From contig CAZLXA010000003.1 of assembly GCA_964563715.1 (NCBI GenBank), forward strand, positions 1-59,150: DNA of 59,150 bases, given 5' to 3'. A program made the translations under genes and the position numbers. The stretch is from an uncultured Candidatus Saccharibacteria bacterium (lineage in GTDB: Bacteria > Patescibacteriota > Minisyncoccia > Phycocordibacterales > UBA9973). The first letter of the stretch is position 1. Each line of letters begins with the position of its first letter. Below, in pieces: positions 5,444-59,150 of this stretch. A model generated the notes under the pieces. That model ran no database searches and was not told where the DNA came from. It saw only the letters and a list, made by a program, of their open reading frames with translations.

Positions 5444-6910
5444 ATGATTCCAACAGCAGAAGAAATCATATCTTTAACTTACGGCCTTAAAGAAAGAGAT
5501 AAAGCTTTAATAGAAAAAGCTTATAATTTTGCTAAACAGGCTCATGAGGGACAACTACGAAAAAGTGGTGAACCATATTTTTTACATGTGGCAACTACAG
5601 CCAAAAATCTAGCCGACCTTGATATGAGTTCTGTTGTTATTGCCGCTGGTTTACTTCACGATGTTTTAGAAGATGCAGGCGTGACAGAAGAGGAATTAAA
5701 AAAAGAATTCGGAGACGAAATAGTTGGATTAGTCGAAGGAGTAACAAAACTTGGTAAGGTTAAATATAAAGGTGTAGAAAGGAATGTTGAGAATTTAAGA
5801 AAATTTTTCATTTCAGTTGCAAAAGATTTGCGGGTTTTGGTCATCAAATTAGCCGATCGCTTACACAATATTGAAACCTTAGAGCATGTTCGGCCAGATA
5901 AACAAAAACGAATCGCCCTTGAAACTCTTGAAATTTATGCCCCCCTGGCTAATCGTTTATCGATGGGTCGATTAAAAGGTAAACTCGAGGACGCTGCATT
6001 CCGATTTGCTTTTCCGAAAGAATACGCTCAAGTTAAAGAATTACTTTTATCTAAAAAAGATGCTGAAGAAAAATATTTAATTGAAGTTAAAGATAAAATT
6101 GATCAAAAAATAAAAGAATCAAGAATTAAAGACACTAAAATAGACTACCGACAAAAACATTTATATTCTTTGTGGCGGAAACTTCAAAAATATAATATGG
6201 ATATCGGTAAAATCTATGATATTATTGCTCTCCGTATCATGGTTGATAGTGTGGCTGATTGTTATCATATCTTAGGTTTAATTCACGGTGAATGGACTCC
6301 GGTTCCTAATCGAATTAAAGATTATATTGCTTCGCCAAAAACAAACGGTTATCAAAGTTTACATACCACTATCTTTACTGGTACTGGTGGAATTGTCGAG
6401 ATTCAAATCAGGACTCATGAAATGCATGAAAAAGCCGAAAATGGTATTGCTGCTCATTTTTTCTATAAAGAGGAACATCATACCGATAAAACCATTCCAA
6501 AAGAATTCGAATGGGTTCATCAACTTCATGATTTAAACCAAAATAATGAAAACCCGGAAAAATTTTTAAAATCAATTAAAATGGATTTTTTTAGCGACCG
6601 ACTTTTCGTCTTCACTCCCAAGGGCGACATCATAGATTTACCAGAAGAATCGAGTGTTATTGACTTTGCTTATGCTATTCACACTGATGTTGGTGACCAC
6701 GCTCAAGGGGCCAAGGTTAATGGTAAAAATTCTTCACTCGGCACAAAATTAAAATCAAACGATATCGTTGAAATCCAAATAAATAAAAATGCTAAACCAT
6801 CATCAAAGTGGTTAGATTATGCGAAAACATCCTTGGCTAGAAAAAGAATTAACCTGCACTTAAAATCAAACAGTCTTTTATCAAAATTCTTATCTTTCGG
6901 TAAAAACTAA
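5444..6910 (+). CDS. rel: RelA/SpoT-homolog (p)ppGpp synthetase/hydrolase, truncated after the TGS domain
   Basis: 488 aa. HD hydrolase motif LLHDVLED. Synthetase motifs GYQSLHTTI and VEIQIRTHEMH. TGS domain FVFTPKGDIIDLPEESSVIDFAYAIHTDVG. There is no ACT/RRM tail. Confidence 0.9.
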   Translation: MIPTAEEIISLTYGLKERDKALIEKAYNFAKQAHEGQLRKSGEPYFLHVATTAKNLADLDMSSVVIAAGLLHDVLEDAGVTEEELKKEFGDEIVGLVEGVTKLGKVKYKGVERNVENLRKFFISVAKDLRVLVIKLADRLHNIETLEHVRPDKQKRIALETLEIYAPLANRLSMGRLKGKLEDAAFRFAFPKEYAQVKELLLSKKDAEEKYLIEVKDKIDQKIKESRIKDTKIDYRQKHLYSLWRKLQKYNMDIGKIYDIIALRIMVDSVADCYHILGLIHGEWTPVPNRIKDYIASPKTNGYQSLHTTIFTGTGGIVEIQIRTHEMHEKAENGIAAHFFYKEEHHTDKTIPKEFEWVHQLHDLNQNNENPEKFLKSIKMDFFSDRLFVFTPKGDIIDLPEESSVIDFAYAIHTDVGDHAQGAKVNGKNSSLGTKLKSNDIVEIQINKNAKPSSKWLDYAKTSLARKRINLHLKSNSLLSKFLSFGKN

Positions 6911-6939
6911 AAAATCACAGGTCTGACCTGTGATTTTTT
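6910..6939. terminator. bidirectional intrinsic terminator between convergent rel and parB
   Basis: AAAAA-TCACAGG-TCTGA-CCTGTGA-TTTTTT. Confidence 0.75.
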
Positions 6940-6942
6940 AGT

Positions 6943-7968
6943 TTAAAGTGAGAAATTTTTAATATTGTATAAATCAATATCCTCTTCAGCTTTTTTAACT
7001 TCTTCTTTTGTTCTATCATCAACAAGATGTGAATCACCTTCTTCAATTAGAGTTATTTCATTTGGCATCTCTGTCGTTGTTGAAATTACAACTTCTGGTT
7101 CTTGACTAGCTACATATTTATCAAGCATGGCATTTGGGTTTCCATTTTCAGTTGATTTAATTAAATTAAGAATTGTGTGAAGATCGTCATTCGTAAAGAA
7201 ATCTATCGTAATATATCCCCCATTTTCTTTTTTCTCAATGTGAACTCGTGTTCCAAGTGATTCCTGAAGTTTCTCTTCCATTTCAGCGATTTCAGGATCG
7301 GGCATATACTCTTTTTTGCGAACTTTATCAAAAGCAATTTTACGAGCGGCTTTTTCAGCATCACGAACTGTCATTTTCTTAAACATTATTTCTTTAAACA
7401 AAACCATTTGCTCTTCTGGTCGATCAATCAACATTAATATTGGCCTGGTATGACCTTCACTAATTTTACGAGTAGATAAAGCGTCTAGTATTTCTTGAGG
7501 TAAAGCAAGTAGTCTTAGAGTGTTTGAAACATATTCCCGACTTTTACCAACTTTTTTTCCAATTTGAGTATGATTAAATTTAAATTCTTCAACGAGTCGC
7601 ATAAAGGCTCGAGCTCGCTCAACAGCATTTAAATCTTCGCGTTGTAAATTTTCAATAATAGCTAATTCCAGTTTAGCCATATTGTCATCACCGACTCGAA
7701 TGATGACTGGGATTTGTTCCAAACCAGCTATTTTTGAAGCTCTCAACCGACGCTCACCCGCAATCAATTCATACTCAACTGCCACTCCATCTTCCTTTTG
7801 AATTTCTTCACGGGATACAACAAGCGGTTGAAGAACCCCATACTGACGAATTGAATCAGCTAAATCACGAAGTCGATCTTCATCAAACTCGCGACGAGGC
7901 TGAAAAGGGTTTGGTTTAATTTTTTCAATATCTACCCAAAAAATTGAATTATTATAAAGCTGTGACAT
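6943..7968 (-). CDS. parB: ParB/Spo0J-family partition protein with a long acidic C-terminal extension
   Basis: 341 aa. N-terminus NPFQPRREFDEDRLRDLADSIRQYGVLQPLVV. ParB box LIAGERRLRASKIAG. An HTH region follows. Confidence 0.9.
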   Translation of the reverse strand: MSQLYNNSIFWVDIEKIKPNPFQPRREFDEDRLRDLADSIRQYGVLQPLVVSREEIQKEDGVAVEYELIAGERRLRASKIAGLEQIPVIIRVGDDNMAKLELAIIENLQREDLNAVERARAFMRLVEEFKFNHTQIGKKVGKSREYVSNTLRLLALPQEILDALSTRKISEGHTRPILMLIDRPEEQMVLFKEIMFKKMTVRDAEKAARKIAFDKVRKKEYMPDPEIAEMEEKLQESLGTRVHIEKKENGGYITIDFFTNDDLHTILNLIKSTENGNPNAMLDKYVASQEPEVVISTTTEMPNEITLIEEGDSHLVDDRTKEEVKKAEEDIDLYNIKNFSL

Positions 7969-14217: not shown

Positions 14218-14251
14218 ATAAATTTATATTTTCAAAAATAAATACAAGCTA

Positions 14252-14336
14252 CACAAATTATATTCCGAAAAAAGTCCTCGGATGAGGGAGGACGAGGAGC
14301 CAGACATTTTTTCGTAAAATAATTTGTTCCGCTTTA
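14252..14336 (+). repeat. hairpin-forming leader element, copy A, ending 7 nt before the infB ATG
   Basis: The 22-nt left arm CACAAATTATATTCCGAAAAAA and the 35-nt right arm AGACATTTTTTCGTAAAATAATTTGTTCCGCTTTA are identical to copy B. ACAAATTAT pairs with ATAATTTGT, and CGAAAAAA pairs with TTTTTTCG. Confidence 0.8.
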
Positions 14337-14343
14337 AACTTTT

Positions 14344-15852
14344 ATGCCAGAAAAAACACAAACAATTGAAAAAGTTCGCCCACCCGTCGTTGTTGTTATG
14401 GGGCATGTTGATCATGGTAAATCAACTCTTTTAGACTATATTCGTAAATCAAACATAGTTGAAGGTGAAGCCGGTGGAATTACCCAACATATCAGCGCTT
14501 ATGAAGTGATGAGTATAGATGATAATGGAGAAAATAGATTAATTACTTTTTTAGACACTCCTGGCCATGAAGCTTTTTCAAAAATGAGAACCAGAGGGGC
14601 CGCAGTAGCCGATATTGCTATCCTTGTCGTTTCAGCCGAAGACAGCGTCAAAGCTCAAACACTCGAAGCTTATAATACAATCATTGAAAGTAAAACTCCT
14701 TATATTGTGGCTATTAATAAAATCGATCGCCCAAATGCCAATATCGAAAAAACGAAAATGGATTTAGTCGAAAAAGGCATATATTTAGAAGGTTTAGGTG
14801 GAGACATTCCTTTTGTCTTAATCTCTGCTAAAGCCGGTACTGGTATTGATGACCTTTTAAGTATGATTATTCTGGTGGCTGATTTAAATGAATTTAAGGC
14901 TAATCCTCAATTAAATGCCTCCGGTGTTATTATTGAAGCCAAGCGTGAACCAAAACGTGGAATTTCTGCTACGGGCGTCATAAAAAATGGAACTTTAAAA
15001 TCTGGAATGTTTGTGGCTTGCGGTGAAGCTATCGTCACAACTCGAATACTAGAAAATTTTAAAGGTTTACCTATTAAAGAAGCAACTTTCTCTTCACCTA
15101 TTAAACTTATTGGTTTTGAATCAATGCCAGAAGTTGGTAATATTTTTCAATCATTTAAAACAAAAAAGGAAGCTGAAAATTATGTTGAAAAAATAAAAGA
15201 AGAAAATTTAAATAATAAAAGTAACGAAAAACAAGAAACAACGACTGGGAAAATTATTCCGATAATTATAAAAACTGATGTTTCAGGAACAATTGAGGCA
15301 ATTGAAAAAGAAATTAGTAAATTAAATACTTTAGAATTATCATTTAAAATAATTACTAAAGGAGTTGGAGCCATAAATGAGTCTGATCTTAAGATGGGTA
15401 ATGTTAATAAAGAAAGTGTTATTGTTGGATTCAATACAAAATTAGATAATGGAGCTCGTGATTTAAATGAAACACTAAAAGTTAGAGTTGAAACATTTAA
15501 CATTATTTATAAATTGATAGATTGGCTAAAAGAAATCGTTGAGGAACGCCGTCCTCGCCAGGAAACAATTGAGGTTATTGGATCACTTAAAATTTTAAAA
15601 ACTTTTGGAGGAAGTAAAGGGAAACATATAGTTGGAGGTAAGGTTACAATTGGAAAAATTACTTATGGAAGTAATATTCGTATCATTCGTCGTGATTTTG
15701 AAATCGGCACAGGGAAAATTGTTGAATTACAAGTTAATAAAATAAAATCAAAGGAAGTTCAGGAAGGGTCAGATTGTGGACTCCAAGTTGAAACCAAAAT
15801 GGATATTGCCGCCGGTGATGTGCTTGAAGCGTTTGAAATTAAAATCGTTTAA
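14344..15852 (+). CDS. infB: translation initiation factor IF-2 (short form, no N-terminal extension)
   Basis: 502 aa. G1 GHVDHGKSTLLD, G3 DTPGHEAF, G4 NKIDR. Confidence 0.95.
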   Translation: MPEKTQTIEKVRPPVVVVMGHVDHGKSTLLDYIRKSNIVEGEAGGITQHISAYEVMSIDDNGENRLITFLDTPGHEAFSKMRTRGAAVADIAILVVSAEDSVKAQTLEAYNTIIESKTPYIVAINKIDRPNANIEKTKMDLVEKGIYLEGLGGDIPFVLISAKAGTGIDDLLSMIILVADLNEFKANPQLNASGVIIEAKREPKRGISATGVIKNGTLKSGMFVACGEAIVTTRILENFKGLPIKEATFSSPIKLIGFESMPEVGNIFQSFKTKKEAENYVEKIKEENLNNKSNEKQETTTGKIIPIIIKTDVSGTIEAIEKEISKLNTLELSFKIITKGVGAINESDLKMGNVNKESVIVGFNTKLDNGARDLNETLKVRVETFNIIYKLIDWLKEIVEERRPRQETIEVIGSLKILKTFGGSKGKHIVGGKVTIGKITYGSNIRIIRRDFEIGTGKIVELQVNKIKSKEVQEGSDCGLQVETKMDIAAGDVLEAFEIKIV

Positions 15853-15861
15853 CAAAAGCTT

Positions 15862-15936
15862 CACAAATTATATTCCGAAAAAACTGTAAGAGGAAAAGGG
15901 TAGACATTTTTTCGTAAAATAATTTGTTCCGCTTTA
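15862..15936 (+). repeat. hairpin-forming leader element, copy B, ending 9 nt before the rbfA ATG
   Basis: Same arms as copy A, with a different and shorter central segment (CTGTAAGAGGAAAAGGGT). Confidence 0.8.
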
Positions 15937-15945
15937 TTTATATGT

Positions 15946-21502: not shown

Positions 21503-22672
21503 ATGATAAAAATTGCTAAAATAAAAAAAATGTATGTATTGTCATTTATCTTCGCTTTACATATTTCTATTTCGGCCTATATCAGTTCTGTTTTTTTAAC
21601 TCAATTTATTAGCGAAAAATATGTTGGTATATTATATACCCTAGCCTCACTATTAACATTAATACTTCTAATTAAAAGTTCCGGGATCTTAAAAAATCTT
21701 GGGAATCGTAGGCTTACTCTAATTTTTCTATTAATAAATATGTTTTCTCTGGTAGGGCTAATAACCTCCCAAAATCCATATATTATTGGAACTTCGTTTA
21801 TATTATTTATGACGACCAATACATTGGTATATTTTTGTATCGATATTTTTATCGAACATTTTGGTAATCCTGCGACAATTGGTAAAACTAGAGGTCTATA
21901 CTTAACAATTATAAATATTGCTTGGATGGTATCTCCAATTATTTCGGTTTTTCTAATTACGAAAGAAGGAGGTTATAAGGCTATATATATACTTGCTTTT
22001 GTTATGGTTATGTTAATGGCTATCGGCCTATTCTTTTCGGTTAAAACATTTAAAGACAAGGTATATAAAAAAACTCCTTTCCTTGAGACATTTAAATACT
22101 TAAGAACAAATCCTCATATGTTTGCGATAGTAATTATTAATTTTATATTACAGTTCTTTTTTGCTTGGATGGTTGTTTATACTCCTATTTATTTATTTAG
22201 TCATTTAAATTTTACCTGGAATCAAATTGGCATTATTTTTACGATAATGTTAACACCGTTTGTTATATTAGGATTACCAACAGGTATACTAATAGATAAA
22301 TATCATGTTAACAAAAGAACATTACTTTATATTGGATTTATAATTATAATTATTTCGACTTTTATAATTTCATTTATTACCACAAAAAATATAGCTATAT
22401 GGGCAATTATTTTATTTATGACTCGTGTTGGTGCTAGTTTTATCGAAACAACTTCAGAAACTTATTTCTTTACCCACATACAAGAAGAAGATGCTTACCT
22501 CTTAGGAATCTTTCGTGATATGAATCCGATCGCTTACATCATTGCTCCCCTAATTGCCACAAGTATATTTTTAGTATTACCATTTAATTATCTTTTTATT
22601 GTTTTAAGTCTTATTTTATTAATCGGTCTATACTATATACCAAAATTAAAACATAACCATGGATCCCGTTAG
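21503..22672 (+). CDS. MFS-type transporter
   Basis: 389 aa with about 12 hydrophobic helices. Confidence 0.7.
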   Translation: MIKIAKIKKMYVLSFIFALHISISAYISSVFLTQFISEKYVGILYTLASLLTLILLIKSSGILKNLGNRRLTLIFLLINMFSLVGLITSQNPYIIGTSFILFMTTNTLVYFCIDIFIEHFGNPATIGKTRGLYLTIINIAWMVSPIISVFLITKEGGYKAIYILAFVMVMLMAIGLFFSVKTFKDKVYKKTPFLETFKYLRTNPHMFAIVIINFILQFFFAWMVVYTPIYLFSHLNFTWNQIGIIFTIMLTPFVILGLPTGILIDKYHVNKRTLLYIGFIIIIISTFIISFITTKNIAIWAIILFMTRVGASFIETTSETYFFTHIQEEDAYLLGIFRDMNPIAYIIAPLIATSIFLVLPFNYLFIVLSLILLIGLYYIPKLKHNHGSR

Positions 22673-22787
22673 AAGTCATACATGTTAGCTTAATAAAAAA
22701 GATTATGCTAAGCTATAAACTATATATTTTGATATTATTATTTAATCAAAGTACGGGAATCTAAAGATTCCCTACTTCTAACGGGAT
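22663..22787 (+). repeat. inverted-repeat leader element E1 (14-bp arms, ~97-nt spacer); the 3' arm ends on the ATG of the pseudouridine synthase
   Basis: ATCCCGTTAGAAGT (22663-22676, overlapping the MFS stop codon) pairs with ACTTCTAACGGGAT (22774-22787). Hairpin GGGAATC-TAAA-GATTCCC (22755-22772) sits 1 nt before the 3' arm. Confidence 0.8.
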
Positions 22788-23487
22788 GGAACCAATTAGA
22801 ATAAATAAATATTTAGCCCAAAAAAATTATTCCACCCGTGTTGGTGGTGATGAACTTATTAAAAAAGGTTTAGTTTTTATTAATGGTAAAAAGGCTGTCT
22901 TAGGTGATAAGGTGTACGAAAATGATGAGGTGGTAGTTAAATCAAAAGGATCAAAAAAAGAATATGTTTACTATGCTTACAATAAAAATGTAAATGTTTC
23001 AACTAATCCCGATACAACAAGTAAAGACATCCTTCAGGTCACAAAATTTCCCGTCCGAGTATTCCCCGTCGGAAGGCTCGACAAAGATTCACACGGACTA
23101 ATATTAATGACAAACGATGGTCGTGTTACCGACCGATTACTTTCTCCACGTTTTGTTCATGAAAAAGAATATACAGTTAAAGTCGATAAGCCATTTTCTG
23201 ACACTTTCATAGAATTAATGCAAAATGGTGTCCATTTTGACGGTTTCATCAGTAAAAAGTGTAAAGTCTGGAGAATGGGTAAATCCAAAGATATCTTCCA
23301 TATAGTGCTAACAGAGGGCAAAAAACGCCAAATAAGGCGTATGTGTGAGGCTTTACACCATAATGTCATTGACCTTAAAAGAATCCGAATCTTAAATATT
23401 GAGCTCGATAAAATCCCTCTTGGAGAATTTAGAGAAATAAAAGGCAAAGAATTAAATGAACTTCTCAAGCAATTAAATCTACTATAA
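22786..23487 (+). CDS. pseudouridine synthase, RsuA/RluB family
   Basis: 233 aa. N-terminal S4 domain IRINKYLAQ. Catalytic-Asp motif GRLDKDSHGLILMTNDG. Confidence 0.9.
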   Translation: MEPIRINKYLAQKNYSTRVGGDELIKKGLVFINGKKAVLGDKVYENDEVVVKSKGSKKEYVYYAYNKNVNVSTNPDTTSKDILQVTKFPVRVFPVGRLDKDSHGLILMTNDGRVTDRLLSPRFVHEKEYTVKVDKPFSDTFIELMQNGVHFDGFISKKCKVWRMGKSKDIFHIVLTEGKKRQIRRMCEALHHNVIDLKRIRILNIELDKIPLGEFREIKGKELNELLKQLNLL

Positions 23488-23490
23488 AAC

Positions 23491-23524
23491 AAAAAATCTC
23501 CACAGAACCTGTGGAGATTTTTTG
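23491..23524. terminator. bidirectional intrinsic terminator
   Basis: AAAAA-ATCTCCACAG-AAC-CTGTGGAGAT-TTTTTT, between convergent genes. Confidence 0.8.
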
Positions 23525-23533
23525 TTATCTCTA

Positions 23534-38937: not shown

Positions 38938-39038
38938 CCCTGTAGTGAATTTTGCCAATGCATATATAATGCGTAAATTTTCTTAAAATTTACTTTGGCA
39001 AAATCTACTACCGGGAACACCCGGTAGTGAATTTTGCC
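38938..39038. repeat. long GC-cored hairpin (38993-39038) plus an orphan half-copy of one arm (38938-38959)
   Basis: TTGGCAAAATCTACTACCGGG-AACA-CCCGGTAGTGAATTTTGCCAA. The arm GTAGTGAATTTTGCCAA recurs at 38942-38958. Confidence 0.7.
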
Positions 39039-39043
39039 AATAA

Positions 39044-54633: not shown

Positions 54634-55830
54634 TTATTTTCTTAAAATTTTATCCATTTTAACTGCAATCTTTATCATATCTTTTTCTTTTCTTCCTCTG
54701 GTTGTTTCGGCACAAGTACCAAGTCGAATCCCCGATGGGTCCATAACACTTCTGGTATCTCCTGGAATTGTATTCATATTCACAATGATTCCTGCTTTTT
54801 CAAGTTTTATACTTGCTTCTTTGCCTGAAATACCTTTCCCATTGAGCCATGTATCCATCAATATCAAATGTGAGTCCGTCCCACCTGAGATAATATGCCA
54901 GCCGAGTTTTTGTAATTCTTTGGCCAAAACTTTTGCATTTTTAATAACTTGCTTTGTATATTTTTTAAATTCTGGCTTCATAGCTTCAGCAAGTGCTACC
55001 GCGACTCCAGCAATATTATTTTCATGTGGTCCACCAAAAAGTCCAGGGATAACCATCTTGTCTAGTTTTTTGTCAAAACCTCGCTCGTCTTTTTTAACAA
55101 ATAAAATTGCTTGTCTTGGGCCACGAAGAGATTTATGAGTTGTAGTCATCACAGAATCCGCATATGGAAATGGAGATGGATAAGCACCACCCGCAATAAG
55201 CCCTGCAAAGTGTGAAATATCAGCGTGGAGAATAGCACCACAAGCATCTGCAATTTCTCTGAACTTTTTAAAATCAACTACTCTCGGATAAGCAGTAAAA
55301 CCACAAACAATGATGTCTGGTTTTTCAGCTATGGCAATTTTTTTCAAATCATCATAATCAATAACTTCAGTTTTAGGGTCAAGTTCAAATTGCAAAGGCT
55401 TCCAAAGTTTACCGGTCATAGAAAGTGGATGCCCATGAGTTAAATGTCCGCCGGAAGTTAATTTCATTCCCATTATCTTTCCTTGCCCGACACCAGTTTT
55501 AGGGTCCCCAATTGGAACAAGGGCTGAGTACAAAGCAAAGTTTGCAGGCGATCCTGAGAGAAGTTGAACATTCACATGCCAGTCTTCTTTTTTTAATTTA
55601 AAAAGTTTTAAAGCACGTTCCATACAAAGGACTTCAACTTTGTCTATAATTTCATTACCACCATAATATCGGCGTCCTGGATAGCCCTCAGCATATTTAT
55701 TTGTCAGTTTAGAACCGACAGCCTTAAGAACATCATCAGATACATAGTTCTCCGAAGCTATAAGGTTTATAACGCTTTTTTGCCTTTTTTCTTCACTCTT
55801 TATAAGTTTTTCTATTTGTTTATCTCGCAT
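54634..55830 (-). CDS. glyA: serine hydroxymethyltransferase
   Basis: Motifs LIASENYVS and TTTHKSLRGPR (PLP lysine). I prefer the second ATG at 55830 (MRDKQIEKL) over the ORF-track start at 55857. That upstream ATG lies inside the E2 leader hairpin. Confidence 0.95.
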   Translation of the reverse strand: MRDKQIEKLIKSEEKRQKSVINLIASENYVSDDVLKAVGSKLTNKYAEGYPGRRYYGGNEIIDKVEVLCMERALKLFKLKKEDWHVNVQLLSGSPANFALYSALVPIGDPKTGVGQGKIMGMKLTSGGHLTHGHPLSMTGKLWKPLQFELDPKTEVIDYDDLKKIAIAEKPDIIVCGFTAYPRVVDFKKFREIADACGAILHADISHFAGLIAGGAYPSPFPYADSVMTTTHKSLRGPRQAILFVKKDERGFDKKLDKMVIPGLFGGPHENNIAGVAVALAEAMKPEFKKYTKQVIKNAKVLAKELQKLGWHIISGGTDSHLILMDTWLNGKGISGKEASIKLEKAGIIVNMNTIPGDTRSVMDPSGIRLGTCAETTRGRKEKDMIKIAVKMDKILRK

Positions 55831-55947
55831 CCCATTAGAAGTAGTCCTTTCGGACATACATATATTTAGTTAATAAAAATCAAAATATGACTAACTTCTT
55901 GATACATTCCCGTTTTCTTAATATAACATATATGACTTCTAACGGGA
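55829..55947 (-). repeat. inverted-repeat leader element E2 (same family as E1, opposite orientation); its 3' arm ends on the glyA ATG
   Basis: On the minus strand CCCGUUAGAAGU (55946..55935) pairs with ACUUCUAAUGGG (55842..55831), with one G-U wobble. Hairpin GUCC-GAAA-GGAC (55855..55844) sits 1 nt before the 3' arm. Confidence 0.8.
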
Positions 55948-56004
55948 CAAGTTCCTTAATTTTATCACAGTTGGCAAAAAAGAAGAAAAGGTTATAATAG
56001 GCTT

Positions 56005-56877
56005 ATGAGAAGCTATTTAGATATTGTTGAAAAAATATTAAAAGAGGGCAAAAAAGTATCAACTAGACAAGGAACACCAGCATTTACAATTGCAGGGGCT
56101 ATATTTGAACACGATATGTCAAAAGGCTTTCCATTACTAACTACAAAAAAAGTTCCATTTCGTTTAATAGCAAGCGAGTTAGAATTTTTTATAAATGGTA
56201 TCACTGATAAAAAATGGCTACAAGATCGCAACAATCATATTTGGGACGAATGGGCCAAGCCACAACTTGCCCCATATGGTCACGATGAAGAATCTAAAAA
56301 AAAGATGCTAGAAGAAAGAGACCTTGGTCCTATTTATGGTTTTCAATGGAGACATTTTAATGCTCCATATGAAAAATTTGATTCTGACTACACAGGAAAA
56401 GGAATTGACCAACTTAAAAAAATAGTTGAAACATTAAAAACAAATCCACGAGACAGAAGAATGATTGTCAGCGCTTGGAATCCATTACAATTTGACGAGA
56501 TGGCTCTTCCCCCTTGCCACTATTCTTATCAAGTGACGGCAATAAACGGAAAATTAAATCTTTTGTGGAATCAAAGATCTGTCGACACAATGCTTGGTCT
56601 TCCTTTTAACATTGCCAGTTACGCATTATTATTACATCTACTTGCAAAAGAATCAGGACTTGAAGAAGGTAAACTTGTCGGATTTCTTGCTGATGTTCAT
56701 TTATTTGAAAATCATGTTGAAGGAGCTAAAGAACAATTATCTCGTGATCCAGAAAAATTTCCACTCTCAAAAATTGAAACAGAGAATTGGAATTCAATTT
56801 TTGATTGGAAGGCAGAAAATTCTAAAGTTTTAAATTATCAAAGTTACGATCGAATTCCTTTTGAAATAGCAATATGA
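56005..56877 (+). CDS. thyA: thymidylate synthase (ThyA type)
   Basis: 290 aa, with LGPIYGFQWRHF, MALPPCH (catalytic Cys) and DVHLFENH. Confidence 0.95.
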   Translation: MRSYLDIVEKILKEGKKVSTRQGTPAFTIAGAIFEHDMSKGFPLLTTKKVPFRLIASELEFFINGITDKKWLQDRNNHIWDEWAKPQLAPYGHDEESKKKMLEERDLGPIYGFQWRHFNAPYEKFDSDYTGKGIDQLKKIVETLKTNPRDRRMIVSAWNPLQFDEMALPPCHYSYQVTAINGKLNLLWNQRSVDTMLGLPFNIASYALLLHLLAKESGLEEGKLVGFLADVHLFENHVEGAKEQLSRDPEKFPLSKIETENWNSIFDWKAENSKVLNYQSYDRIPFEIAI

Positions 56878-57398
56878 TTCTATCTATAATCTCTGCCATT
56901 GGGAAAAATAATGAAATTGGCCAAAGTAATGCTTTACTTTGGGATTTACCAGCAGATATGAAGCACTTTAAAGAAACTACTTCTAGTCATACTGTAATAA
57001 TGGGCCAAAAAACCTATGAATCTTTAGGACAAAGTAAGACTGGTGAGCTTGGCCGACCACTTCCCAACCGAAGAAACATAGTTTTAACCAAAGATGTATC
57101 TTTCCGCCGTGAGGGAATTGAAGTTATCTTTTCTATTGAAGAACTTATTAAACTATTAAACGAAACTGAAGATAAAGATAGCGAATGTTTTATTATTGGT
57201 GGAGGACAAATTTATAAATTATTCATTGATATAGCTGACCGACTTTATATCACCCATGTTGATGAATCATTCCATTTAGCTGATACATTCTTCCCTGAAA
57301 TAGATATATCTAAATGGACAAAAACATCTGAAGAAGAATATCCCTCAGATGAAAAAAATAAATACAATCTTTCGTTTGTAACATATACTAAAAAATAA
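56874..57398 (+). CDS. folA: dihydrofolate reductase
   Basis: 174 aa, with AIGKNNEIG, VIMGQKTYESLG and IIGGGQIY. Overlaps the thyA stop by 4 nt. Confidence 0.9.
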   Translation: MILSIISAIGKNNEIGQSNALLWDLPADMKHFKETTSSHTVIMGQKTYESLGQSKTGELGRPLPNRRNIVLTKDVSFRREGIEVIFSIEELIKLLNETEDKDSECFIIGGGQIYKLFIDIADRLYITHVDESFHLADTFFPEIDISKWTKTSEEEYPSDEKNKYNLSFVTYTKK

Positions 57399-57426
57399 AA
57401 CCCTCATTTGAGGGTTTTATTTTTTA
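57397..57426. terminator. bidirectional intrinsic terminator
   Basis: AAAA-CCCTCA-TT-TGAGGG-TTTTATTTTTT. Confidence 0.8.
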
Positions 57427-57984
57427 TTTATTTTTTATATTTTTAATTAATTCATCAACTTGTCTATAGAGATCTTCGAAATTTCCACTATTTTCTATTG
57501 AATACTCGGCTGTTTTCATAACTTCAGGAATTTGTTTATCTGCTTCATTCTCTTGATCTGATAAAAAATCTTCGTAAGTTTTCTTATCATCACCTGTATT
57601 TTCATTTCTTTTTTTCATTCTTTCATACCTGATTTTTGAATCAGCATCAATTTTAACTAAAATAAAATTTGGCAATGCTCTTAGATGTTCAATATCTGTA
57701 AATCTCCTTACCCCGTCGATAACTACAATCTCAGACTCAAGTTTTGAAGCATCAACAGCAATAGCTTTAGCTAGCAAATTCTCTCCAAAGTTTACTCTCA
57801 AGACAGTCGATATTTTCTGTAAATTTTCACGGCTAACAGGAATAGTTATCCTTTCTAAAACATCTCGTAAAATAGATGAAAATTTACAATCTTTTGCTCC
57901 ATATTTTTCAACTAAATGTTTTTTAATCGTTTCTTTGCCACTAGCAATAGATCCAACAATTCCAACAATTATTTTATTCTCCAT
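57424..57984 (-). CDS. P-loop nucleotide kinase (CoaE/dNMP-kinase-like)
   Basis: 186 aa, with P-loop GIVGSIASGKE. The pyrimidine-deoxynucleotide neighbourhood suggests a dNMP kinase. That role is inference only. Confidence 0.55.
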   Translation of the reverse strand: MENKIIVGIVGSIASGKETIKKHLVEKYGAKDCKFSSILRDVLERITIPVSRENLQKISTVLRVNFGENLLAKAIAVDASKLESEIVVIDGVRRFTDIEHLRALPNFILVKIDADSKIRYERMKKRNENTGDDKKTYEDFLSDQENEADKQIPEVMKTAEYSIENSGNFEDLYRQVDELIKNIKNK

Positions 57985-57985
57985 A

Positions 57986-58510
57986 TTATTTCATATTGGA
58001 GTAAGTCTCCATTTCTGTATTTAATAAAACAAATTCAACCTTTGCCTCTTTAAAAATTTCTTTACTTCGTCCACCCCCATGATAATCTTTCATCGCCACC
58101 ACCTTCTCAATTCCAGCATTAATAATACTCTGAGCACATTTATAACAAGGAACCATTTTACAATATAATGTTCCACCCTCAACTGCTACCCCAATTCGAG
58201 CCGCATTGTTTATGGCATTTTGTTCAGCGTGACTAGTTCTAATACAATGTTTTGAAACAGTCCCGTCTTCTTGAGTCACTGTGTGCATTTCGTGACCAAC
58301 TTCATCACAACTAGGTAATCCAACAGGAGCTCCAACATAACCTGTTGCTAAGATTCTTTTATTTTTTGTAATAATACAACCTGCTCGTCCCCTATCACAA
58401 GTACCTCGAGTTCCAACCATCTCTGCTAGTTGGATAAAATATTCGTCCCATGATGGCCTTACAAAACTATTTTTTTCTTCCATAAATATATTATTTATAT
58501 TAAAACTCAC
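57986..58510 (-). CDS. dCMP deaminase (ComEB-type cytidine/deoxycytidylate deaminase)
   Basis: Zinc motifs HAEQNAI and PCYKCAQ. An alternative start MEEKNSF lies at 58483. Confidence 0.9.
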   Translation of the reverse strand: MSFNINNIFMEEKNSFVRPSWDEYFIQLAEMVGTRGTCDRGRAGCIITKNKRILATGYVGAPVGLPSCDEVGHEMHTVTQEDGTVSKHCIRTSHAEQNAINNAARIGVAVEGGTLYCKMVPCYKCAQSIINAGIEKVVAMKDYHGGGRSKEIFKEAKVEFVLLNTEMETYSNMK

Positions 58511-59121
58511 CTAATAATAAAAAACCCCAGTATCATCCCAACAAAATTTAAAATTGTGTGGGAAATTGAAATTAAAACCAAATTTTTATATCGGTAATAC
58601 ATCCAAGCAAAACCAATTCCAGCAATGAAAGTCATAGGAAGAACGAATGTTGAATTTAAGTAAATAACATGGATCAAAGTAAAGACTGAAGCATTTAAAA
58701 TAATAATAAATATGGGACTAGAAAAAGCTCTTCTTAGCATATTCATTAAAACTCCACGAAAAACAATTTCTTGTATTATACTTAGAGGAATAAAAAGTAA
58801 TAAAAATTTTAGATTTTTCCACCAGCCTAAAAACGGACTATGTGGAACGATTTCAGAGAGCCAAATTAGAAACAAAACTCCCGCCACAGTAAATACAGTG
58901 TAAGGTAAAATATCTTTCATAAAATCCCTAGTCAACCCCATATCAGCGTAAGACCATTTATTGTGTTTTACAATTCCAATCAAAAGCAGGGCCACACCAA
59001 AAAGCATTATTAATCTAAAGCTTTCCGGAATAACATTAAAATATAAAAGTAGAGTAGGAATTACATACAAATATAATATTTGAATCCAAACAAGTTCTCT
59101 TTCTTTTTTTATGTCTTCCAT
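58507..59121 (-). CDS. CPBP-family intramembrane glutamic protease (CAAX protease-like)
   Basis: 204 aa, polytopic. Motifs QEIVFRGV, FTLIHV and SISHTILN. Confidence 0.8.
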   Translation of the reverse strand: MEDIKKERELVWIQILYLYVIPTLLLYFNVIPESFRLIMLFGVALLLIGIVKHNKWSYADMGLTRDFMKDILPYTVFTVAGVLFLIWLSEIVPHSPFLGWWKNLKFLLLFIPLSIIQEIVFRGVLMNMLRRAFSSPIFIIILNASVFTLIHVIYLNSTFVLPMTFIAGIGFAWMYYRYKNLVLISISHTILNFVGMILGFFIIR

Positions 59122-59150
59122 CCCGTTAGAAGTAGATAATCTTTAGATTA
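59120..59150 (-). repeat. partial third copy of the E leader element (3' arm plus hairpin), cut by the window edge
   Basis: The minus strand reads AAUCUAAAGAUUAUCUACUUCUAACGGGAUG. This is 29 of 31 identical to the E1 segment AAUCUAAAGAUUCCCUACUUCUAACGGGAUG. The ATG is the CPBP start codon. Confidence 0.75.

Follow-up and report, generated by a model that had tools for sequence, protein, structure and literature searches.

A probable miniature mobile element at the glyA start codon of an uncultured Saccharibacteria bacterium and its relatives across Patescibacteria

Architecture of the glyA/thyA spacer

We analyzed a 59,150-nt stretch of DNA from an uncultured Candidatus Saccharibacteria bacterium (hereafter the window; contig CAZLXA010000003.1 of assembly GCA_964563715.1), and within it a short inverted-repeat element, E2, that occupies the spacer between the divergent genes glyA, encoding serine hydroxymethyltransferase (SHMT), and thyA. 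Two sister copies, E1 and E5, lie elsewhere in the window, and a covariance-model search with filters off found no further members there. Coordinates are collected in Table 1.

The terminal bases of E2 are T55947 and A55830, the latter doubling as the first base of the glyA ATG; the element contains no open reading frame (ORF) and is a miniature form. In the direction of glyA (minus strand), the sequence consists of TGTGATAAAAT (55969-55959), followed by TAAGGAACTTG, T55947, the 5' arm, an A+T-rich interior of 79 nt, a small hairpin, T55843, the 3' arm, and the ATG. Landmarks of the interior are, in order, CATATATGTTAT, ACGGGAAT, TATTTTGATTTTTATTA, and TATGTAT, followed by the hairpin, the single T, and the arm. 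The internal AACGGGA could be either a pairing partner of the 5' arm or a protein-binding repeat. Because the interior is homologous over its full length to those of miniature copies L059, L103, and L109 (loci are cited by their L numbers), which sit at unrelated genes in other genomes, E2-type miniatures spread as a unit.

A preliminary description of this DNA, made from the sequence alone, had proposed two arms that form an intact helix and differ at a single position, read as a G-U pair in minus-strand RNA and as a C-A mismatch in plus-strand RNA. The arms lie where it placed them, the difference pairs as it said, and the helix is longer than the proposed 12 bp: it reaches 14 bp with the addition of T55947-A55830 and G55948-U55829. 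In the predicted RNA fold (-33.6 kcal/mol, z = -3.9), this helix takes in the A and U of the glyA start codon.

Table 1. Positions of E2, its sister copies, and the adjoining glyA and thyA signals in the window
Feature	Position	Strand	Remarks
E2, whole element	55830..55947	-	118 nt; 91 bits to covariance model R1
E2 arms, plus-strand reading	CCCATTAGAAGT 55831-55842; ACTTCTAACGGG 55935-55946	+	
E2 5' arm CCCGTTAGAAGT	55935..55946	-	terminal inverted repeat
E2 3' arm ACTTCTAATGGG	55831..55842	-	C-to-T relative to family consensus, giving G-U on the minus strand
E2 small hairpin GTCC-GAAA-GGAC	55844..55855	-	followed by single T55843; typical of T..A subfamily
E2 internal AACGGGA	55908..55914	-	subterminal repeat of arm tip; read from alignments, many copies have AACGGGA
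11 nt TAAGGAACTTG	55948..55958	-	between conserved promoter block and E2; absent from empty alleles
Candidate glyA promoter block TGTGATAAAAT	55959..55969	-	extended -10-like; conserved upstream of glyA in relatives
glyA real start codon	55828..55830	-	ORF 55830..54634, 398 aa; begins ATG CGA GAT AAA CAA
thyA promoter TTGGCA-16-TATAAT	55971-55998	+	11/12 match; 6 nt before thyA ATG at 56005
E1, sister copy	22664..22786	+	target duplication TGGA at 22660-22663 and 22787-22790
E5, sister copy	59121..59150	-	clipped by window end; 3' arm 59133-59122; hairpin GATAATC-TAAA-GATTATC

Start codon and promoters

The glyA start had been moved by the preliminary description from the ORF-list position 55857 to 55830, and the homologs bear this out. 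A protein search returned thousands of SHMT homologs; in the closest 20, which we aligned (84-96% identical), the Met at 55830 is invariant (20/20), and the N-termini follow the pattern M[KRQHI]DK[QI][IV]EKLIK. The nine extra residues read from 55857 (MSERTTSNG) are the translation of the E2 hairpin and 3' arm. SHMT is longer here than in most homologs (398 versus 391 aa), mainly through an internal 8-residue insertion and not through its N-terminus. This insertion, DPKTGVGQ at residues ~108-115 (gene at 54634-55830), is missing from most close homologs and present in P0050 and P0062; other homologs carry different small insertions at three further sites.

Upstream of E2, the -10-like block TGTGATAAAAT is a candidate glyA promoter by sequence conservation alone; the promoter scan made no call there. 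Since E2 lies downstream of this block, it is probably transcribed on the glyA strand, within the glyA leader. Two other arrangements were rejected. A promoter inside E2 serving a leaderless glyA was not found by the minus-strand scan, and positions -12 to -7 from the ATG read ACTTCT. A Shine-Dalgarno (SD) sequence bridged to the start by the helix, with AAGGA 6 nt before the helix foot, was discarded because the predicted transcription start is downstream of AAGGA and other copies lack it.

It had also been suggested that E2 might influence thyA-folA, for which we find no support: the thyA promoter lies outside E2 and is identical in the empty allele of a close relative (L122). This promoter ends so close to the ATG that the thyA mRNA is predicted to be leaderless, and an effect of E2 on thyA is unlikely. 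The glyA gene of another relative, L121, shows the same spacing as the thyA promoter and ATG (TAAGAT-TGGAGT-ATG), and leaderless or SD-less initiation seems common in this lineage.

Element-free alleles in close relatives

The SHMT of L122 is 94% identical to that of the window, and its gene order is the same: the genes for CAAX protease, dCMP deaminase, and an AAA_18 protein, then the oppositely oriented folA and thyA, and finally glyA. Its glyA/thyA spacer is 77 nt long and lacks the element, with flanks identical on both sides, and L123 matches L122 in synteny, flanks, and 77-nt element-free spacer. Because these relatives share gene order and flanks with the window but lack the element, we regard E2 as a recent gain; by comparison of these alleles, its arrival in the glyA leader postdates the divergence from relatives with 94% identical SHMT. 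In all, no element was found upstream of glyA in L118-L120, L121, L122, L123, L131, and L132.

Gene order near glyA varies among close relatives. In L118, folA-thyA lies upstream of dCMP deaminase, and a nucleoside deoxyribosyltransferase gene precedes glyA; in the window (54634-59121) and in L122, folA-thyA adjoins glyA, and in the window the rearranged block is flanked by E2 and E5.

Sister copies E1 and E5

The arm 12-mer has six near-exact occurrences in the window, compared with 1.3 expected (none of 100 shuffles reaches six), and the elements have a density of roughly one copy per 10-20 kb. E1, with a predicted RNA fold of -42.3 kcal/mol (z = -6.6), precedes a pseudouridine synthase gene (rluB/RluB-like), and E5 precedes a CAAX-protease-like gene with its ATG at 59121 on the minus strand.

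E1 can be compared with its own empty site. In the window, the filled site reads ...AACC-ATGGA-T[element]A-TGGA-ACC..., and the element is also present in L124/L125, where the RluB-like protein is 97% identical. The locus is empty in L126/L127 (94% identical) and in L128/L129; the L126/L127 site has a single ATGGA (...GATT-ATGGA-ATATCC...). This shows directly that E1 is an insertion accompanied by duplication of TGGA. At the empty sites, an MFS transporter gene shares an overlap of 17 nt (L126/L127) or 32 nt (L128/L129) with the pseudouridine-synthase gene. Because of the E1 insertion, the MFS ORF of the window (21503-22672) now stops at a TAG (22670-22672) inside the 5' arm. The E1 5' arm thereby gives the upstream gene a stop codon, besides the start base that the element gives to the downstream gene.

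Distribution, ends, and targets of the family

A scan of 185,579 species genomes for both arms spaced 75-105 nt apart yielded at least 117 stretches. Among the matches listed, all belong to Patescibacteria (the candidate phyla radiation, CPR) except one contig binned as Pirellulales; the arm 12-mer is present in every locus, and the carriers include Saccharibacteria, with many loci, as well as Kaiser-, Nomura-, Jorgensen-, Staskawicz-, Falkow-, and Komeilibacteria, Kazan, and others. A covariance model built from eight oriented copies identified ~115 distinct copies in these loci; the alignment-based counts below were made by reading the alignments and are approximate. Phage carriage was rejected, as the lone viral-contig match is a chance match without the CCCG end. 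Full-text literature searches returned no description of these arms, or of a MITE (miniature inverted-repeat transposable element) from CPR bacteria. Thus, the family is apparently undescribed, and E2 would be a new member of a new MITE family.

Family members end in a 13-bp terminal inverted repeat, YCCCGTTAGAAGT ... ACTTCTAACGGGR, usually with a 4-nt target duplication outside it. The outermost pair, beyond the 12-nt arms, covaries (T:A in 39 rows versus C:G in 38; 43 versus 34 in a second alignment). The left 4 nt, now and then 3 or 5 nt, are repeated on the right and are mostly TGAA or TGGA, as in ATGAA-T[..]A-TGAA, ATGGA-T[..]A-TGGA, ATGAG-T[..]A-TGAG, and ATGAA-C[..]G-TGAA. Targets other than start codons are duplicated as well (TAAG in L064, CAAG in L078, TATA in L010, TAAA in L020, TGCAA in L050 and L105, and TGGGT in L021). 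In ~8 cases the target is TTGA inside a -35-box-like GTTGAC, and in L135, TTGACT-17-TATATT is rebuilt downstream.

In ~70% of the ~115 oriented copies, the 3' arm is directly followed by RTG, with an ORF starting there and the corresponding 4-nt flank on the upstream side. Insertion rebuilds the start codon, since TG opens the duplicated target and A or G closes the element. That the element supplies the first base of the rebuilt start is evident from C..G-type copies, where ATG stands upstream, as the original, and GTG at the rebuilt start. The elements thus insert preferentially on host start codons, and the host reading frame survives. Within operons, insertions often split an ATGA stop/start overlap, with the TGA of the upstream gene kept in the left duplicate (e.g., L037, TGA 6205-6203; L133, TGA 1202-1204). 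Miniature interiors are 75 to 105 nt long and varied in sequence, and only the arm tips are invariant.

Covariation and strand of the inverted repeat

The preliminary description took the G-U wobble in the E2 arm as a sign of an RNA structure on the glyA strand, an argument that does not survive comparison with other copies. Whenever one arm of an inverted repeat undergoes a single transition, one strand shows a wobble and the other a mismatch, and either outcome has a prior of 50%. With orientation fixed by the host start codon, we count ~4 copies with G-U in the sense strand (E2, L113, L066b, and L110) versus ~4 with A-C at the same arm position (L074, L017, L052, and L060), and in the hairpin, wobbles likewise occur on both strands (L059 versus L008).

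The covariation that had been seen between the hairpins of E1 and E2 is real across the family. Among 13 distinct hairpins, 98.9% of cells are paired and 4 of 7 pairs show compensatory changes; the observed covariation score and percentage paired are reached in 0/500 shuffles and the four compensatory pairs in 4/500, and sliding the partners by 1-3 columns leaves at most 63% of cells paired. The arms, too, carry compensatory double changes (L008, L103b, L093, and L104). What falls away is the use of this signal as evidence for RNA, because it is symmetric between strands and between RNA and DNA: hairpin covariation and arm double changes are equally expected from a protein that recognizes both ends, from hairpin or cruciform DNA, or from variant master copies.

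A regulator specific to glyA/thyA had also been envisaged, possibly with a ligand. In this explanation, E2 would serve one-carbon/thymidylate genes as a riboswitch or translational operator, a cis-regulatory RNA that senses folate, glycine, or nucleotides. Its position in the glyA leader, the stable predicted fold that sequesters part of the AUG, the covarying hairpin, and the internal AACGGGA, which could pair alternatively with the 5' arm, speak for such an RNA. We nevertheless consider it very improbable. The same spacer is element-free in close relatives with identical flanks and in four others, and the genes behind the copies are functionally unrelated (pseudouridine synthase, CAAX protease, hisH, and others). 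The variable interiors with invariant arm tips hold no conserved unpaired core, and target duplications and an empty site exist. Searches of Rfam, with the whole window at the gathering threshold and with 55700-56100 at E <= 10, hit only tRNAs and noise.

Full-length relatives encoding a GIY-YIG nuclease

In one of the fetched loci, L038 (6216-6497), a pair of arms is 256 nt apart and encloses a 93-codon ORF. The layout is ATG AAC / CCC GTT AGA AGT ... GAC TTC TAA / CGGG GTG...: the ORF starts at the left, original host ATG, reads the 5' arm as PVRS (Pro-Val-Arg-Ser), and terminates at a TAA of the 3' arm, with 4 nt left to the rebuilt start codon of the host gene. This long form, ~280 nt, has the same arms and the same duplication as the miniatures, and its single gene is predicted to encode a 93-aa single-domain GIY-YIG nuclease (Pfam PF01541, E = 2e-17, 63.6 bits versus a cut-off of 22.6). 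The closest solved structures in a profile search are UPF0213 (1zg2, 1ywl) and SLX1 (4xlg), which form the structure-specific branch of the GIY-YIG superfamily.

The ORF has 956 homologs, mostly of 93 aa, of which those with a name are Patescibacteria entries called "GIY-YIG nuclease family protein". When 25 were aligned, the N-termini comprised 15 with PVR[SN] at or near the first Met, two with PLE, one with SVRS, and seven that began from an internal Met, and 23/25 C-termini read [DG]F. Because these termini recur, the arms are coding sequence throughout the long-form family. The architecture of L038 is repeated in L133 (between hisF and hisH), L135, and L115. A metagenome scan for exact arms 245-270 nt apart gave 46 stretches, of which at least 20 have the coding motif KNRLKFFF beside one arm. 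In all 19 copies with junctions aligned, the 4-nt flank is duplicated fully or at 3/4 positions; the ORF ends ..DF-TAA within the arm in 19/19 checked copies, and the left flank reads ATG in 12/19. Full-length copies are fixed in orientation because the host ATG must be captured, and they occur with both C..G and T..A terminal pairs (L143, L145).

At one host gene start (...TGAAATACTTCGAC), full-length elements have C:G in one contig pair and T:A in the other (L142/L150 versus L143/L145), either through a compensatory change in place or through independent insertions at one site. In L115 (6880-7340), a nested T..A-type miniature sits precisely at the start codon of a GIY-YIG element of full length, which has variant arms (CCCCGTTAGAAAC / GTTCTAACGGGG) and is followed by a small arm-loop-arm foldback.

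We considered whether miniature interiors derive from the GIY-YIG ORF and rejected this: MAFFT aligns the termini alone, and AACGGG is better read as an arm-tip repeat. Because the interiors do not align, the relationship between the two forms rests on their ends, duplication length, and target preference; interiors that fail to align are usual for MITE/parent pairs.

The enzyme that moves the family could instead be conventional. In this alternative, E2 is an ordinary MITE moved in trans by an unsampled DDE transposase, with IS1380-, IS5-, and IS701-like elements as candidate families with 4-5 bp duplications, and the GIY-YIG ORF is cargo of some copies. A terminal inverted repeat with a 4-nt target duplication is the signature of DDE transposition, and we know of no GIY-YIG enzyme that makes such insertions, in agreement with our full-text literature searches. 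Yet ~1.4 Mb of fetched loci contain no arm pair 1-2 kb apart and no transposase gene that we could see, and the same ends occur across many CPR phyla. Moreover, the GIY-YIG ORF is fitted codon by codon into the arms and the duplicated ATG across hundreds of homologs, which makes cargo capture hard to credit. We therefore judge a conventional transposase unlikely.

Nor did the full-text searches give any prokaryotic GIY-YIG gene with inverted repeats and target duplications at its borders. GIY-YIG ORFs have been reported from insertions, other than introns, in the rRNA genes of CPR bacteria, at scattered sites of poor conservation (PMC11270868), and these may belong to the same family.

Nature of E2 and of its family

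Altogether, E2 is very probably a miniature, non-autonomous member of a mobile DNA family whose very small elements are confined to Patescibacteria. As in a MITE, it is short and noncoding with terminal inverted repeats (arms of 12+1 bp), and it has dispersed relatives with homologous interiors (~115 copies in the at least 117 loci). Target duplications and empty sites are seen for the family and for E1, and the 280-nt GIY-YIG elements are a longer coding form with the same arms, duplication length, and targets.

Several observations weigh against this reading, beginning with E2 itself, where the canonical 4-nt duplication is missing. The flanks are CTTG-T on the 5' side and A-TGCG on the 3' side; they share only TG, and CTTG stands where a duplicate of TGCG is expected. 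Nor is E2 a clean insertion: relative to L122, a leader of 31 nt (CAGATTATTACC...AATAAT) is replaced by 11 nt (TAAGGAACTTG) plus the element. The window contains no full-length GIY-YIG copy, and miniature and full-length forms align only at their termini (MAFFT). The small hairpin is on the gene-nearest side in 29/29 T..A-type miniature copies, which is beyond random insertion and leaves room for either a selected role of the transcribed element or a directional insertion mechanism. To our knowledge, GIY-YIG nucleases act in homing or repair and do not cause insertions with target duplication. We infer that the GIY-YIG protein is the mobilizing enzyme, but an unseen transposase acting in trans may do this instead.

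Natural variation at the locus offers one possible account of the irregular junction. ATGCGAGA is a natural allele of the glyA start (L132), and a short leader allele (TGTGATAAGAT-TGGAGT-ATG) exists in the group (L121); one possibility is that E2 inserted into a short-leader, probably leaderless allele, and that the upstream copy of the ATG was later lost or mutated. The CTTGT 5' flank of E2 is also found in L113 and L066. We rejected CTTG-Y as a part of the element, as it is found (E2, L113, L066, L079, and L052) at 8 of ~280 ends, near chance.

In the mechanism that we propose, a full-length element would express its nuclease with the promoter, ribosome-binding context, and start codon of the host, and the host gene would then be translated by termination-reinitiation, 4 nt after the nuclease TAA. 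The nuclease would act on the inverted-repeat ends and so could move full-length and miniature copies alike; hairpin or cruciform ends are a plausible substrate because the SLX1 and UPF0213 relatives are structure-specific. E2 would be transcribed with glyA, and the first two bases of the AUG would be buried as its arms pair into the 14-bp helix. This helix would be a by-product of the inverted repeat that should dampen glyA translation or be neutral; for glyA, E2 would be neutral at best.

We advance only tentatively the further idea that the ~280-bp GIY-YIG elements are autonomous, and hence a new class of prokaryotic transposable element and the smallest self-mobilizing DNA known. Their sole protein would then be a 93-aa SLX1/UPF0213-like nuclease working on its own inverted-repeat ends; the host start codon would be captured for the element's own ORF and the ribosome handed back 4 nt past the stop. 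E1, E2, and E5 would be gene-less hitchhikers whose fixed orientation and conserved helix reflect translational parasitism.

Orientation and covariation also bear on another explanation, in which the mobile element has been domesticated as a translation device with a selected RNA role. Here, the 13-14-bp helix would loop the element out, and ribosomes reaching its foot, either from an upstream gene or along the short ORF begun at the upstream ATG copy, would open it and expose the rebuilt start, keeping translation coupled; helix and gene-proximal hairpin would be under selection at the RNA level. Such a device would fit the many insertions that split ATGA overlaps, with the upstream stop placed at the 5' foot of the helix and the start codon at its 3' foot, as well as the ORF stop 4 nt before the host start in full-length copies, the 29/29 orientation bias, the compensatory double arm changes (L008, L103b, L093, and L104), and the covarying terminal pair. 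However, arm complementarity is equally explained by a protein that recognizes both ends, and wobble pairs show no strand bias (~4 versus ~4). In the miniatures, the short ORF that begins upstream stops early (at E1, 9 codons in); because this is ~100 nt before the host ATG, termination-reinitiation cannot apply at E1. E2 lacks any upstream copy of the ATG. We regard domestication as rather unlikely.

A small mobile element at gene starts has practical and broader consequences. Gene callers run ORFs into the element, and glyA here was called 9 codons too long. The 3' arm has no stop in the host frame (ACT TCT AAC GGG), so host ORFs get extended, and over-extended calls include hisH as MTSNGV... 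(L133, 1472-1490) and SHMT as MSERTTSNGM... (window, 55831-55857). Such miscalls at the arms are probably systematic in annotations of Patescibacteria, and knowledge of the element corrects many start codons in their genomes. Streamlined CPR genomes had been considered poor in mobile DNA; here, a family spans many CPR phyla and sits exactly where genes start and operon genes meet. Should the 93-aa GIY-YIG protein suffice for movement, it would constitute a new, extremely compact transposition system with a defined short target. The elements are also natural experiments on initiation behind a stable helix in SD-poor, leaderless-prone bacteria.

Other repeats and hairpins in the window

The window contains other structured sequences. 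At 38938-39040, a different inverted-repeat element with 21-nt arms (CCCTGTAGTGAATTTTGCCAAT ... TTGGCAAAATCTACTACCGGG), then AACA and a third arm (CCCGGTAGTGAATTTTGCCAA), lies in the spacer between two minus-strand ORFs and may represent another small mobile family. Two copies of a ~90-nt hairpin-forming repeat (AAGCTACACAAATTATATTCCGAAAAAA / TTTTTTCGTAAAATAATTTGTTCCGCTT), at 14246-14334 and 15850-15940, lie upstream of tRNA-Cys and tRNA-Leu genes. Between the convergent folA and its neighbor, a perfect 18-bp hairpin at 57389-57426 (TAAAAAATAAAACCCTCA / TGAGGGTTTTATTTTTTA) looks like a bidirectional terminator, and similar perfect hairpins are found at 6904-6944 and 23488-23526.

Comparison with known systems

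Several known classes were rejected for E2. IS200/IS605 palindrome-associated elements and repetitive extragenic palindromes (REP/REPIN) have no terminal inverted repeats or target duplication; they have a fixed end tetranucleotide and subterminal hairpins or paired REPs, whereas terminal inverted repeats and variable, copy-specific target duplications are present here. Integron attC sites have RYYYAAC ... GTTRRRY cores and form one-orientation cassette arrays beside an integrase; the TTCTAAC/GTTAGAA of the arms is a 6/7 match, but the copies are dispersed on both strands before housekeeping genes and have target duplications. A hammerhead or other self-cleaving ribozyme was dismissed by eye, since GAAA is a variable loop (UAAA in E1 and E5) and not a conserved core.

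In its possible consequence, E2 resembles the split ribosome-binding sites of T4 genes 38/25 and MS2-type unmasking, where a stable helix lies directly 5' of the AUG and includes part of it. By analogy, translation from upstream would open the helix; unlike E2, such leaders belong permanently to their genes and do not move. In being harmless to the gene it enters, the insertion recalls Rickettsia palindromic elements (RPE) and IStrons. RPE achieve this by in-frame reading and IStrons by splicing, whereas here the start codon is duplicated and rebuilt. There is no splicing ribozyme (no Rfam match) as in IStrons, and no in-frame read-through as in RPE; at E1, the distance from ATG to ATG is 127 nt, not a multiple of 3.

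The full-length relatives are comparable to free-standing GIY-YIG homing genes (T4 seg, I-TevI type) and to UPF0213/YhbQ and SLX1 in encoding a GIY-YIG domain and in being small, selfish-looking genes wedged between host genes. They differ in that the protein has 93 aa in all and no DNA-binding domain, and in having many target genes rather than one cognate site, as well as terminal inverted repeats and a target duplication, which homing does not produce; E2 itself has no ORF. Against the NCBIfam model for group I intron endonucleases, the score is 28 bits and falls short of the 56-bit cut-off.

In form, E2 resembles cotranscribed bacterial MITEs such as the Correia elements of Neisseria and RUP/BOX of pneumococcus, which are ~100-150 nt long, have terminal inverted repeats and a target duplication, occur in many copies per genome adjacent to genes, and form a long hairpin when transcribed, which can alter expression. 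Unlike these, the present family targets the start codon, which the end base of the element rebuilds, and its orientation relative to the gene is fixed. It is also superphylum-wide with invariant ends, and its candidate parent encodes a GIY-YIG nuclease, not a DDE transposase.

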